DNA from: Escherichia coli
Lineage (GTDB): Bacteria; Pseudomonadota; Gammaproteobacteria; Enterobacterales; Enterobacteriaceae
Length of the DNA: 64,000 nt
Assembly: GCF_030384885.1 (NCBI RefSeq)
Contig: NZ_CP128613.1
Reading direction: 5' to 3' (one strand)
In this document: piece by piece, positions 12,095 to 60,015 of the stretch
Layout of the letters: each line of letters opens with the position of its first letter
How positions within the stretch are numbered: position 1 is the first letter of the stretch
Translations under genes and position numbers: made by a program
Notes under the pieces: model-generated
What the model saw: the letters and a program-made list of their open reading frames with translations, nothing else
Told to the model about the DNA's origin: nothing
Database searches by the model: none

Positions 12095-12368
12095 TGCTGT
12101 TGTCTGCTCCTGGTAAATGCTTTTTCCTGCACTATGACACAATTTTGCGTCAGGTTGCATATACCGAAGCCGTCGGCGGGTACATTTGTATCAGTGGTTA
12201 AACACGCAGCTTAAAAGATCAGGGATTTGCGCTATTGCATTTCGCTCAGCGAGTTCGCGCCCTGGAGCGGCATACCCAGAACTTTATATGCTTTGTTTGC
12301 GGGGCGAAAGTTTATGGATGAGTTAACCACGCGACTTGCCAACGGGGTCTGAATCGCTTTTTTTTGTA

Positions 12369-13195: not shown

Positions 13196-13218
13196 ACGGG
13201 GGAATCTCCCCCGTTAAA
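13196..13218. terminator. Stable hairpin after rpiA (possible terminator)
   Basis: ACGGGGGAATCTCCCCCGT palindrome; the flanking run is A-rich on the + strand, so terminator function is uncertain. Confidence 0.35.
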
Positions 13219-14863: not shown

Positions 14864-15006
14864 ACGGTAAAGCCCTCACCGAAGCGAGGGCTTGAAGGAG
14901 AAGGGTTATGATGCGACTTGTCATCATACTGATTGTACTGTTACTCATAAGTTTCCCAGCTTATTAACAGTCAGTCACAGGGGAGGAGCAATCCTCCCTT
15001 ACCCTT
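14864..15006 (-). ncRNA. sibC: SibC (RygC) antisense antitoxin sRNA, about 140 nt; ends approximate
   Basis: Minus-strand promoter-like TTGACA (15042-15037), 17-nt spacer, TAATTT (15019-15014); hairpin AGCCCTCACCGAAGCGAGGGCT at 14871-14892 near the predicted 3' end; fully covers ibsC on the opposite strand. Confidence 0.6.
14908..14967 (+). CDS. ibsC: Type I toxin IbsC, 19-aa hydrophobic peptide (MMRLVIILIVLLLISFPAY)
   Basis: ATGATG start 8 nt downstream of AAGGAG; a single TM-like hydrophobic peptide matching the Ibs toxin family; located between serA and fau, where K-12 has ibsC/sibC; too short for the ORF track. Confidence 0.75.
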   Translation: MMRLVIILIVLLLISFPAY

Positions 15007-15067
15007 ACTCACTAAATTAGGTTAAAGAATCAACGATGTCAATCAGGGCGATGCAGGTGTGTCGCCC

Positions 15068-15688: not shown

Positions 15689-15874
15689 AGGGAATCTCCG
15701 AGATGCCGCCGCAGGCTGTAACCCTTGAACCCTTGGTTCAAGGTGAATGTGTCGTCACAGTTTTAAGGCTTCTCGGACGGACCGAGCATGCTCACCAACC
15801 GCGGAGCGCCACATTCTTGTGGTATGAAATATCGGCTCAGGGGACTGGCCCGCTTGCGAACATCTCAGAGAAAT
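15689..15874 (-). ncRNA. ssrS: 6S RNA (SsrS), regulator of sigma70-RNA polymerase
   Basis: Reverse complement reads AUUUCUCUGAGAUGUUCGCAAGCGGGCCAGUCCCCUGAGCCGAUAUUUCAUACC ... GGCAUCUCGGAGAUUCCCU, the E. coli 6S RNA sequence; ends within a few nt. Confidence 0.93.
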
Positions 15875-29169: not shown

Positions 29170-29350
<181 letters not shown>

Positions 29351-35376: not shown

Positions 35377-36475
35377 ATGTTTGAAATTAATCCGGTAAAT
35401 AATCGCATTCAGGACCTCACGGAACGCTCCGACGTTCTTAGGGGGTATCTTTGACTATGACGCCAAGAAAGAGCGTCTGGAAGAAGTAAACGCCGAGCTG
35501 GAACAGCCGGATGTCTGGAACGAACCCGAACGCGCACAGGCGCTGGGTAAAGAGCGTTCCTCCCTCGAAGCCGTTGTCGACACCCTCGACCAAATGAAAC
35601 AGGGGCTGGAAGATGTTTCTGGTCTGCTGGAGCTGGCTGTAGAAGCTGACGACGAAGAAACCTTTAACGAAGCCGTTGCTGAACTCGACGCCCTGGAAGA
35701 AAAACTGGCGCAGCTTGAGTTCCGTCGTATGTTCTCTGGCGAATATGATAGCGCCGACTGCTACCTCGATATTCAGGCAGGTTCTGGCGGTACGGAAGCA
35801 CAGGACTGGGCGAGCATGCTTGAGCGTATGTATCTGCGCTGGGCTGAATCGCGTGGTTTCAAAACTGAAATTATCGAAGAGTCGGAAGGTGAAGTGGCGG
35901 GTATTAAATCCGTGACTATCAAAATCTCCGGCGATTACGCTTACGGCTGGCTGCGTACAGAAACTGGCGTTCACCGCCTGGTGCGTAAGAGCCCGTTTGA
36001 CTCCGGCGGTCGTCGCCACACGTCGTTCAGCTCCGCGTTTGTTTACCCGGAAGTCGATGATGATATCGATATCGAAATCAATCCGGCGGATCTGCGCATC
36101 GACGTTTATCGCGCATCCGGCGCGGGTGGTCAGCACGTTAACCGTACCGAATCTGCGGTGCGTATTACTCACATCCCAACCGGGATTGTGACCCAATGCC
36201 AGAACGACCGTTCCCAGCACAAGAACAAAGACCAGGCCATGAAGCAGATGAAAGCGAAGCTTTATGAACTGGAGATGCAGAAGAAAAATGCCGAGAAACA
36301 GGCGATGGAAGATAATAAATCTGATATCGGCTGGGGCAGCCAGATTCGTTCTTATGTCCTTGATGACTCCCGCATTAAAGATCTGCGCACCGGGGTAGAA
36401 ACCCGCAACACGCAGGCAGTGCTGGACGGCAGCCTGGATCAATTTATCGAAGCAAGTTTGAAAGCAGGGTTATGA
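35377..36475 (+). CDS. prfB: Peptide chain release factor 2, made by programmed +1 frameshift (365 aa)
   Basis: Frame 1 encodes [25 protein letters not shown] then an in-frame TGA at 35452-35454; the +1 frame continues [11 protein letters not shown]... through SPF and GGQ motifs to 36475. Confidence 0.93.
35440..35455 (+). promoter_or_regulatory. prfB autoregulatory +1 frameshift site
   Basis: AGGGGG TAT CTT TGA C: an internal Shine-Dalgarno-like element 3 nt upstream of the slippery CUU-UGA-C. Confidence 0.93.
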
Positions 36476-56497: not shown

Positions 56498-56599
56498 AGT
56501 GGTTCCATTATTTATAGGGGCTAATAACGCCTGATAATTGCGTTACTTCCTGATGGATTAAGTTGGGGATAATTTATCCCAGAGAGGTCATAAAGACTC

Positions 56600-57370
56600 G
56601 TGAAAAGTATAGTTGACCCATCGGCATTATTCATTGATTTAGGCGCGCAGAAACGTCCCACTGTGATTTCTGTTGTTGGGGCTGGGGGGAAAACCAGCTT
56701 GCTTTTTTGGCTGGCAGAACTGCTCCAGGCTAGCGGCAGGCGAGTGTTAATCACTACGACGACACATATGTTTATGCCAACGTCTCACTGGCCCGTGGTT
56801 TTCTGTCGTGATCCCGCCATGCTTCCTCATGCGTCTCTTACATCCCCCATTTCATTTTGTTTTCACAGCTGGAAAGCGAACCAGGGAAAAGTGCAGGGAT
56901 TTATGCCAGAAGCGATTGATGCACTGGTGCAACGACCAGAGTGTGACGTAATTCTCATTGAGGCAGATGGCTCGCGTGGAATGCCGTTAAAAGCGCCTGA
57001 TGAGCACGAACCTTGCATACCCAAAAGCAGTTGCTGCGTGATTGCTGTGATGGGAGGACATATTTTGGGTGCGAAAGTGAGCACAGAAAATGTCCATCGC
57101 TGGTCGCAGTTTGCTGATATTACCGGGTTAACACCTGATGCAACCTTGCAACTGAGCGATCTCGTTGCGCTGGTTCGCCACCCTCAGGGCGCATTTAAAA
57201 ACGTACCGCAAGGTTGTCGGCGAGTCTGGTTCATTAACCGTTTTTCTCAATGTGAGAATGCGATTGCGCAAAGCGAGCTCCTTCAACCGCTGCAACAACA
57301 CGACGTAGAGGCAATCTGGCTGGGCGATATACAAGAACATCCTGCAATCGCGCGCAGATTTGTGAATTAG
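56600..57370 (+). CDS. yqeC: YqeC, marker protein of selenium-dependent molybdenum hydroxylase loci (256 aa)
   Basis: P-loop-like VVGAGGKTS; pairs with yqeB. Confidence 0.85.
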   Translation: MKSIVDPSALFIDLGAQKRPTVISVVGAGGKTSLLFWLAELLQASGRRVLITTTTHMFMPTSHWPVVFCRDPAMLPHASLTSPISFCFHSWKANQGKVQGFMPEAIDALVQRPECDVILIEADGSRGMPLKAPDEHEPCIPKSSCCVIAVMGGHILGAKVSTENVHRWSQFADITGLTPDATLQLSDLVALVRHPQGAFKNVPQGCRRVWFINRFSQCENAIAQSELLQPLQQHDVEAIWLGDIQEHPAIARRFVN

Positions 57371-57417
57371 CGGCCCGGGTATTCCGGGTTACTGAAAGGA
57401 TATCCATTGAGGTTGGT

Positions 57418-59042
57418 ATGAATATTTTCACAGAGGCTGCAAAACTTGAAGAGCAAAATTGTCCGTTTGCGATGGCGCAAATTGTTGATAGCCGAGGCTC
57501 GACTCCCCGCCATTCTGCACAAATGTTAGTGCGCGCCGATGGTTCTATCGTCGGTACAATTGGTGGTGGAATGGTTGAGCGGAAGGTGATTGAAGAGTCG
57601 CTTCAGGCATGCAGGAACGTAAGCCGCGATTATTCCATGGACGTATGGCTCGTAACGGTGTGGATGCTGTCGGGTCAGATTGTGGAGGTGCAATGTCCGT
57701 GTTTATCAGCGTCCATGGTATGCGTCCTCGTCTGGTGTTGATTGGCGCGGGGCATGTCAATCGGGCGATAGCCCAGAGTGCGGCGCTATTAGGATTTGAT
57801 ATTGCCGTTGCCGATATTTATCGCGAAAGCCTTAATCCTGAATTATTCCCATCATCAACCACGCTTCTCCATGCTGAGTCGTTTGGTGCGGCAGTGGAAG
57901 CACTGGATATTCGCCCTGATAATTTTGTCCTGATTGCCACGAATAATCAGGATCGTGAAGCCCTCGACAAACTCATTGAACAGCCCATTGCATGGCTGGG
58001 GTTGCTGGCAAGTCGCCGCAAGGTTCAGCTTTTCCTACGTCAATTGCGTGAGAAAGGCGTGGCTGAAGAACATATTGCCCGTTTACATGCGCCCGTTGGT
58101 TACAACATAGGTGCGGAAACGCCGCAGGAGATCGCCATCAGCGTGCTGGCAGAAATATTACAGGTGAAAAATAACGCGCCGGGTGGGCTGATGATGAAAC
58201 CTTCTCATCCTTCCGGACACCAGCTGGTGGTGATTCGCGGTGCGGGGGATATCGCCAGTGGTGTGGCGCTACGTCTGTATCATGCGGGTTTTAAAGTGAT
58301 CATGCTGGAAGTGGAAAAACCGACAGTGATTCGTTGTACCGTGGCGTTTGCCCAGGCCGTGTTCGATGGCGAAATGACGGTCGAAGGCGTCACTGCCCGC
58401 CTGGCAACCAGCTCTGCGGAAGCGATGAAACTTACCGAACGCGGATTCATCCCTGTGATGGTAGATCCCGCCTGTTCATTGCTTGATGAACTGAAACCGC
58501 TTTGCGTGGTGGACGCTATTCTGGCGAAACAGAATTTGGGTACGCGGGCAGATATGGCACCAGTAACAATCGCGCTTGGGCCGGGCTTTACTGCTGGGAA
58601 GGATTGCCATGCGGTAATTGAAACAAATCGCGGGCACTGGCTCGGTCAGGTGATTTACTCTGGTTGTGCGCAGGAGAATACCGGTGTTCCCGGCAATATT
58701 ATGGGGCATACCACCCGACGGGTGATCCGTGCTCCTGCTGCAGGCATTATGCGATCCAACGTGAAATTAGGCGATCTGGTGAAAGAGGGCGATGTGATTG
58801 CCTGGATTGGTGAGCATGAAATTAAAGCACCGTTGACGGGGATGGTGCGTGGCTTGTTGAACGACGGACTGGCGGTGGTCGGTGGTTTTAAAATTGGTGA
58901 TATCGATCCACGTGGTGAAACGGCTGATTTCACCAGCGTTTCTGATAAAGCCCGGGCAATTGGCGGCGGCGTACTTGAGGCGTTAATGATGTTGATGCAT
59001 CAGGGCGTTAAAGCGACAAAAGAAGTGCTGGAAGTGGCTTAA
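57418..59042 (+). pseudogene. yqeB: XdhC-family molybdo-hydroxylase maturation protein YqeB, reading frame interrupted in this sequence (N-terminal 107-aa ORF and 477-aa ORF in different frames)
   Basis: XdhC N-domain (MNIFTEAAKLEEQNCPFAMAQIVDSRGSTPRHSAQMLVRADGSIVGTIGGGMVERKVIEESLQA) is in frame 1 and stops at 57741; the rest (RKPRLFHGRMARNGVDAVGSDCGGAMSVF..., Rossmann LVLIGAGHV...) is in frame 0, open from 57594. The span is 1625 nt, one short of the 1626 nt needed for a single 541-aa reading frame. Confidence 0.55.
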
Positions 59043-59047
59043 ATGAA

Positions 59048-59080
59048 AATGGCCGGATGGTATTACCCACCCGGCCTTTA
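59048..59080. terminator. Hairpin between convergent yqeB and yqeA (probable bidirectional terminator)
   Basis: GGCCGGATGGTATTACCCACCCGGCC inverted repeat flanked by A/T. Confidence 0.55.
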
Positions 59081-59082
59081 AA

Positions 59083-60015
59083 TTACTGACAAATCACCGT
59101 TCCGGTTTTGCCTTCAATCCCTTCTTTCGCTTTGCTCAATACGGTAATCAGTGCTTCGCGTCCAGCGCGAGAGCGAGCAAACGAGGCGGCTGCTTCCACT
59201 TTAGGCAGCATAGAACCTTTCGCAAAATGACCTTCTTCGATAAAGCGTTCAGCATCACTTAATGACAGGCGATCGAGCCACTGTTCGTTCTCTTTACCGA
59301 AGTTAATGGCCACTTTTTCTACCGCAGTCAGAATGATCAGCATATCGGCATCAATCATTTCTGCTAAACGGGCGCTGGCCCAGTCTTTATCAATAACCGC
59401 GCTGGCACCACGCAGATGGTTACCTTCACGAATAACAGGAATACCACCACCGCCAACGGTGATCACTACCTGGCCTGCATCTACCAGAGCTTTAACCGTT
59501 TCTTTTTCAATGATATCAACCGGTTTTGGCGAGGCAACAACACGGCGATAGCCGCGACCAGCATCTTCTTTCAGAGTGTAACCCTGTTTTGTCAGTTGCT
59601 CGGCTTCCTGCTCGGTAAAGAACGAACCGATCGGCTTGGTCGGGTTGAGGAATGCCGGATCGTTAGCGTCGACTTCGACCTGGGTAACCAGCGTTGCTAC
59701 AGGTTTATTAATGCCACGAGAAAGCAGTTCTTCTCTTAAGGCGTTTTGTAGATCGTAACCAATATAACCCTGGCTTAAGGCAACACAGACAGACATCGGC
59801 AGCATTGGCGAGTGCGCTTCAGTTTTTGCCGCGGCTTCAAAGGCCTGGTTAATCATGCCTACCTGCGGCCCGTTACCATGAGTGACGATGACCTCATGTC
59901 CCTGGGCAATTAAATCAACAATTGCCTGAGACGTAATTTTTACCGCTTTCATTTGTCCGGCTAGATCGTCGCCCAGCGCATTCCCGCCCAGGGCGAGAAC
60001 AATTTTCTTACTCAT
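59083..60015 (-). CDS. yqeA: Carbamate kinase-like protein YqeA (310 aa)
   Basis: Amino-acid kinase family, ArcC-like N-terminus (MSKKIVLALGGNALG). Confidence 0.9.
   Translation of the reverse strand: MSKKIVLALGGNALGDDLAGQMKAVKITSQAIVDLIAQGHEVIVTHGNGPQVGMINQAFEAAAKTEAHSPMLPMSVCVALSQGYIGYDLQNALREELLSRGINKPVATLVTQVEVDANDPAFLNPTKPIGSFFTEQEAEQLTKQGYTLKEDAGRGYRRVVASPKPVDIIEKETVKALVDAGQVVITVGGGGIPVIREGNHLRGASAVIDKDWASARLAEMIDADMLIILTAVEKVAINFGKENEQWLDRLSLSDAERFIEEGHFAKGSMLPKVEAAASFARSRAGREALITVLSKAKEGIEGKTGTVICQ

Follow-up and report, generated by a model that had tools for sequence, protein, structure and literature searches.

A missing nucleotide in the recorded sequence of yqeB raises the question of whether this Escherichia coli isolate has lost the gene or whether the loss exists only in its genome record. 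We addressed this question in a window of 64,000 bases (the window being the whole stretch of DNA that was analyzed). The list of open reading frames (ORFs) for positions 56500-60000 was inspected together with the raw sequence, and the locus is laid out as follows.

56600..57370, + strand: yqeC, the upstream partner, intact according to the ORF list, the annotation of a relative, and a translation check
57418..59042, + strand: yqeB as recorded, 1625 nt, a frameshifted, pseudogene-like copy of a 541-codon gene
57418..57741, + strand: frame A ORF, 107 aa, consisting of 64 native YqeB codons and 43 out-of-frame codons, ending at TGA 57739-57741
57594..59042, + strand: frame B open frame, native codons 65-541

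The frame A ORF opens with MNIFTEAAKLEEQN, which is the N terminus of YqeB (MNIFTEAAKLEEQNCPFAMAQIVDSRGSTPRH...EESLQA), and then runs out of frame as CRNVSRDY...VWC*. The frame B ORF is listed as 57609..59042 (+ strand), encodes 477 aa, and opens with MQERKPRLFHGRMARNGVDAVGSDCGGAMSVF; the remaining YqeB sequence in this frame is QERKPRLFHGRMARNGVDAVGSDCGGAMSVF.... The nearest upstream stop codon in frame B is at 57591-57593, so the frame is open from 57594 and overlaps frame A for 148 nt (57594-57741). From start to stop, yqeB measures 59042-57418+1 = 1625 nt, and 542 codons would need one more nucleotide. An earlier note on this DNA had described two frames overlapping at 57594-57741 and a gene 1625 nt long, one nucleotide short for a single frame. 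The ORF list and the frame B stop at 57591-57593 bear out the first description, and the length recomputed from 57418 and 59042 agrees with the second.

The nature of the interruption is apparent from comparison with the intact yqeB of 2013C-4282. In a pairwise alignment, intact GCATTGCAGG is opposed to GCATGCAGG in the window; this is the sole gap in 402 alignment columns, and the rest is 100% identical. Exactly one T is absent. It was lost from the TT pair right after the Ala64 codon, turning codon 65 from TTG (Leu) into TGC.

57610, + strand: deletion site, the surviving T of the Leu65 TT pair; intact GCA TTG CAG, window GCA TGC AGG

With one T put back, the coding sequence (CDS) is 1626 nt long and identical to that of 2013C-4282 yqeB (annotated protein, WP_001020407.1). 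The 1-nt deletion that had been put forward as the explanation is thus the one seen in the alignment, and the frame switch, which had been placed between EESLQA and GSDCGG, lies just past Ala64. The string GCATGCAGG, proposed as a candidate site, does hold the lesion, but it occupies 57607-57615; the coordinates 57606-57614 given for it were off by one. There is practically no doubt that the recorded sequence contains the lesion. Since it was read off a direct comparison with intact copies and not from a statistical pattern, chance is not at issue.

The deletion also alters the sequence around it. It yields GCATGC, an SphI site at 57607-57612 that is the sole one between 54391 and 60416, and it makes an ATG at 57609-57611 in frame B. 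The missing T was the midpoint of an imperfect inverted repeat at 57602-57617 (TTC-AG-GCA-T-TGC-AG-GAA), and its loss turns the center of the repeat into a perfect palindrome, GCATGC; the SphI site could serve in a PCR-RFLP assay. The stems of the repeat are of only 3 + 3 bp, and we draw no mechanistic inference from it.

According to Pfam, residues 12-74 of intact YqeB form XdhC_CoxI and residues 106-247 the XdhC_C Rossmann domain. TIGR03309, the NCBIfam YqeB equivalog, covers residues 271-526; it scores 417 bits, with the cut-off at 220, and is matched along the whole model (positions 1-256 of 256). A frameshift at codon 65 therefore falls inside the first domain, XdhC_CoxI, and not between domains. 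Hence, where the earlier note had assigned the XdhC N-terminal domain and the rest of YqeB to separate frames, the two frames stand, whereas a break between domains does not. NCBIfam XdhC-type models match only residues 5-64 of the 107-aa frame A product, in which XdhC_CoxI is truncated. Frame B retains the last part of XdhC_CoxI, followed by the Rossmann domain XdhC_C and the YqeB domain TIGR03309. The TIGR03309 score is 417 bits in both the intact relative and the 477-aa frame B product of the window, which identifies the family. The position of the gene agrees, with yqeC immediately upstream in a purine-catabolism/molybdenum-hydroxylase locus; the molybdenum-hydroxylase cluster around yqeB is as described previously (PMC2276186). 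XdhC_CoxI, XdhC_C, and TIGR03309 do not stand in one 541-aa chain in the window, where the frame breaks at codon 65. We concluded that the locus is yqeB by descent, yet the family protein is not encoded.

TIGR03309 proteins are described as accessory proteins of selenium-dependent molybdenum hydroxylases; they are confined to selD-positive genomes, and fusion to an XdhC-like domain is frequent (Haft and Self, PMC2276186). Deletion of yqeB in Clostridioides difficile abolished the growth benefit of urate and severely reduced that of xanthine, a phenotype resembling that of selD mutants (PMC11448449). YqeB and YqeC are markers of the selenium-cofactor trait and of the anaerobic 2,8-dioxopurine urate-degradation pathway (bioRxiv 10.1101/2025.04.24.650524). 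E. coli YqeB is thought to be a maturation factor of selenium-dependent molybdenum hydroxylases, a putative role, and WP_001020407.1 is annotated [quoted passage not shown]

Comparison with known proteins places the window copy more precisely. With intact E. coli YqeB (b2875 in K-12; WP_001020407.1 in 2013C-4282 and ST3), it shares the locus, the neighbors, and the sigma-54 promoter; unlike that gene, it has a frame broken at codon 65, and normal translation gives no 541-aa product. The short-form YqeB/EF2563 proteins (E. faecalis EF_2563 and C. difficile CD3478) correspond to residues 271-526 of E. coli YqeB, a stretch that matches TIGR03309 over its full length. Only some TIGR03309 members have an XdhC-like N-terminal half fused to them (PMC2276186); E. 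coli YqeB does, and it is this part that the frameshift hits. YqeB resembles the XdhC chaperones for molybdenum-cofactor insertion, such as Rhodobacter capsulatus XdhC, at residues 12-74 (XdhC_CoxI) and 106-247 (XdhC_C), and its nearest solved relatives are XdhC-like (PDB 2WE7/2WE8 and 3ON5; E = 7e-27 and 7e-21). In contrast to XdhC, it has the additional TIGR03309 domain, and the NCBIfam XdhC equivalogs score under their cut-offs (110/162 and 201/350 bits). YqeB is therefore XdhC-like and not an XdhC orthologue.

Two readings of the missing T have to be weighed, both of them already named in the earlier note. The one that we propose, to which we assign a probability of about 0.5, is that the deletion is real in the organism and arose very recently, in this isolate alone. 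The other is that one T was dropped at consensus calling and that the organism has an intact yqeB of 541 codons; we regard this as a serious competitor with somewhat less than an even chance. Real mutation and artefact are thus rated near even, and much of the evidence bears on both.

The state of the surrounding DNA was assessed against clonal relatives. Over 64,000 bases, the window and its best match, 2013C-4282, are separated by 4 substitutions and 2 indels of one base each (a one-base overhang at the final alignment column, in 2013C-4282, is a slicing artefact). Differences were assigned by three-way alignment of the window, 2013C-4282, and ST3. Private to the window are the yqeB T deletion and two substitutions: C to T at 2389, a synonymous change (AAC to AAT) in mscS, and C to A at 12281, in the intergenic region between argP and rpiA, ~90 nt from the second of two ERIC copies. 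Two substitutions and an indel at 13208 are private to 2013C-4282, and 4 substitutions are private to ST3. The window thus carries substitutions of its own within the clone of 2013C-4282 and ST3, as a distinct isolate would, and in such a lineage a private indel is unremarkable. On the other side, the deletion is one of just three window-private differences in 64 kb, and 1 indel among 3 private events is a high share for indels.

The indel at ~13208 lies in a hairpin at 13196-13214, GGGGGAATCTCCCCC, just past rpiA and probably its terminator. The window and ST3 have C5 where 2013C-4282 has C4, and the state in the window is found exactly in 16 other genomes. Because C5 is common to those 16 genomes, the indel belongs to the reference, 2013C-4282, and not to the window. 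It was accordingly discarded as a sign of sloppy assembly of the window. The C4 of 2013C-4282 may itself be a consensus error. As a C5-to-C4 change contradicted by 16 genomes, it suggests that finished genomes do carry errors of the kind that the artefact reading supposes. That reading also draws on chromosome-sized assemblies with multiply frameshifted yqeB fragments resembling long-read noise (P0066 and P0132).

Other properties of the window speak for a real deletion. Long-read consensus errors cluster in long homopolymers. The yqeB deletion is in a 2-nt run and is not associated with a Dam (GATC) or Dcm (CCWGG) motif, and the assembly is clean elsewhere: the window has 238 homopolymer runs of at least 5 nt, all equal in length to those of ST3, with no private indel. 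The window assembly is therefore not generally error-prone. From recJ to dpaL, 19 of the 20 annotated genes checked translate uninterrupted, the sole broken frame being yqeB. Its surroundings are intact, with mocA, ygfK, ssnA, ygfM, xdhD, and yqeC upstream and arcC, hyuA, ygeY, and dpaL downstream.

The promoter of yqeB is likewise preserved.

57001..57017, + strand: sigma-54 promoter of yqeB, inside yqeC; an exact match to the 17-nt TGAGCACGAACCTTGCA, unchanged

Experiments in MG1655 showed that a sigma-54 promoter within yqeC drives yqeB and that YqeB can no longer be detected once the site is mutated (PMC4591121). As in a pseudogene, the frame in the window is disrupted relative to intact orthologues, both in the clonal relatives and in the 4,859 genomes described below. 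The further decay of an old pseudogene is absent: after repair, the CDS matches that of the relatives at 100% identity, the promoter is exact, and the pathway partners show no decay. If the lesion is real, it must therefore be very recent. An otherwise undecayed gene, with cluster and promoter intact, that a single added base restores to identity with its clonal relatives is also what an assembly error looks like, and this counts against the proposed reading.

We compared the locus with a set of 5,426 complete E. coli genomes, using positions 57300-59100 as the megablast query. The yqeB region was matched in 5,170 of the 5,426, with yqeC, yqeB, and arcC annotated, and single-piece alignments covering the whole query span 1802 bases in the genomes versus 1801 in the window. 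A 60-nt probe centered on the deletion site, run against all 5,426 genomes, found the deletion in 0 of the 4,859 that it matched. Every match listed covers 61 bases, and the identity band of at least 99% is empty; hence, no matched genome bears the deletion. A two-frame layout in intact orthologues would have undone the deletion reading, and the search found none among the 4,859 complete genomes, so that reading stands.

The allele was also sought in metagenomes and protein collections. A deleted-allele 40-mer (GAAGAGTCGCTTCAGGCATGCAGGAACGTAAGCCGCGATT) matched 0 metagenome contigs, and the intact 41-mer, the positive control, was found in at least 60 stretches. Among the metagenome stretches listed, 39 of 39 full-length yqeB copies have an intact single frame of 541 codons. 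A collection of ~15 billion proteins, in which the intact protein occurs on 749 contigs, contains neither the exact 107-aa product nor the exact 477-aa product, and exact look-ups of the 465-aa and 440-aa products gave no match there. The allele is thus unique to this record among all public data searched. Its lack of any counterpart in the 4,859 genomes, the metagenome contigs, and the exact protein products counts against a real mutation and favors a dropped base.

When the 107-aa product was used as the query of a homology search, other 107-aa products with the same out-of-frame tail and TGA were returned. In P0017, a G is deleted one codon ahead of the lesion in the window; P0018 lacks a T in codon 58; and P0019 and P0020 leave the native frame later than the window does. 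Each related product exits the native frame at a different position, so none represents the event in the window. Between codons 58 and 85 of yqeB (P0017-P0023), at least 6 other assemblies carry different frameshifts or deletions over ~150 nt. These are mostly short ENA or Logan contigs with the same +1-frame TGA, and some of the clusters have 4-6 members. We concluded that frameshifts in the codon 58-85 stretch recur in public data and that the one in the window is unique to it.

In 256 of the 5,426 complete genomes, nothing matches the yqeB region. A few others, such as NCTC9967, retain just the first ~12% of it, annotated "XdhC family protein." These genomes and fragments indicate that the yqeB locus has been lost or truncated in some lineages and is dispensable in nature. 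Dispensability, together with the other frameshifts in the same 150-nt stretch, some of them in clusters of 4-6 members, supports a real mutation.

If the T deletion is real, the consequences for YqeB would be severe. The native ATG (57418) opens onto a 107-aa peptide of which only residues 1-64 are native and which has neither the Rossmann domain nor the TIGR03309 domain. Translation would leave the native frame past Ala64, as the T is lost from the TTG of codon 65, and would run through 43 wrong codons to the TGA at 57739-57741. The 107-aa peptide is predicted to be nonfunctional, and the allele would be either null or strongly hypomorphic. Anaerobic purine/urate catabolism would probably lose the selenium-dependent steps that the surrounding cluster encodes (xdhD, ygfM, ygfK, ssnA, and others). 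Since yqeB closes its transcription unit and the downstream gene, arcC, is convergent, polar effects are not expected.

A deletion that is real could still leave part of the protein. The TIGR03309 domain (residues 271-526) is untouched by the frameshift, and a strong internal start signal lies downstream of it.

57684..57695, + strand: internal GGAGG (57684-57688), then 4 nt, then the Met93 ATG (57693-57695), in frame B

This is the sole strong ribosome-binding context within the gene downstream of the frameshift, and it is present in the intact yqeB of 2013C-4282 also. The duplex with the anti-Shine-Dalgarno sequence is -10.6 kcal/mol at Met93, exceeding the -6.3 kcal/mol of the native start. 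At the new ATG (57609) it is -2.4 kcal/mol, and this codon was rejected as a restart site because of its weak Shine-Dalgarno sequence. The frame A stop overlaps a GTG (57735) and a TTG (57738) in frame B, the latter as TTGA at 57738-57741. A C-terminal fragment beginning at Met93 (57693), or formed by reinitiation at GTG 57735 or TTG 57738, would make the allele less than a full null. With its Rossmann and TIGR03309 domains, such a fragment might by analogy keep the selenium-cofactor function, as in YqeB proteins that naturally lack XdhC; TIGR03309 proteins have been described both with and without the XdhC fusion (Haft and Self, PMC2276186).

We consider this outcome improbable. It is entirely inferential, the GGAGG-ATG spacing is just 4 nt, and ribosomes in frame A pass through the Met93 start site. 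The 449-aa product from Met93 would lack the entire XdhC_CoxI domain, and a start at residue 107 or 108 would fall at the very edge of the Rossmann domain (106-247). Gene callers do choose the Met93 start on 9 unrelated, truncated contigs, which carry the 449-aa product (P0016). These are no trace of the allele: the contigs begin 12-80 nt upstream of Met93, and the deletion site is 83 nt upstream. Because they end before that site, they are contig-end artefacts and uninformative on the deletion. A C-terminal fragment bearing TIGR03309 could be made at some level, a speculation to which we give little weight. A natural separation of domains, in which the 449-aa fragment keeps selenium-cofactor maturation and XdhC_CoxI is dispensable for it, seems to us slightly more improbable again.

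A programmed -1 frameshift within the overlap would restore full-length YqeB and make the two-frame layout a functional design. The sole point in its favor is the 148-nt overlap (57594-57741), where slipping by -1 would bring ribosomes back into the native frame. The window contains a natural case of programmed frameshifting that serves as a control.

35377-36475: prfB, with a natural programmed +1 frameshift at CTT TGA C (shift site, 35449-35455)

Like yqeB in the window, prfB consists of two overlapping frames, and its shift site is conserved and annotated in the relatives 2013C-4282 and ST3. In contrast, the arrangement of yqeB is peculiar to this sequence and lacks a shift signal. No X_XXY_YYZ heptamer occurs in frame A within 57594-57741, where the longest runs are GGG and TTT. 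The layout was seen in 0 of the 4,859 complete genomes, and the 39 full-length metagenome copies are all single-frame. With neither a slippery site nor a conserved layout, programmed frameshifting is rejected; its chance of being correct is negligible.

A one-base frameshift in a known gene, found in this window alone, is an ordinary event of a known kind. Isolate-private single-gene frameshifts are commonplace in E. coli assemblies, and neither a real deletion nor an artefact reveals a new mechanism. If the deletion is real, the isolate is a natural yqeB knock-out in which the cluster for selenium-dependent molybdenum hydroxylases and anaerobic purine catabolism is otherwise intact. Judging from the yqeB deletion mutant of C. 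difficile, the isolate would be expected to lack the selenium-dependent steps. Together with its clonal relatives 2013C-4282 and ST3, such an isolate would offer a ready isogenic comparison, of modest practical value, in a pathway of current interest for the removal of urate by gut bacteria. If the deletion is an error, one genome record has a wrong pseudogene call, and nothing more follows.

Several noncoding features were recorded elsewhere in the window.

617-742, + strand: ERIC/IRU repeat, copy 1, between pgk and fbaA
12369-12494, - strand: ERIC/IRU repeat, copy 2, between argP and rpiA
14892-15042, - strand: Sib antitoxin RNA, above the Rfam gathering threshold, opposite the ibsC toxin gene annotated in relatives
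15691-15874, - strand: 6S RNA (ssrS), above the Rfam gathering threshold
29178-29255, - strand: naRNA4, above the Rfam gathering threshold

The two ERIC copies are 126 nt each, lie in inverted orientation, and are 98.4% identical. The 22-mer AAGTAAGTGACTGGGGTGAGCG, which we take to be the ERIC2 PCR primer, occurs exactly in both 126-nt repeats (0 occurrences expected by chance), and this match identifies the repeats as ERIC/IRU elements.
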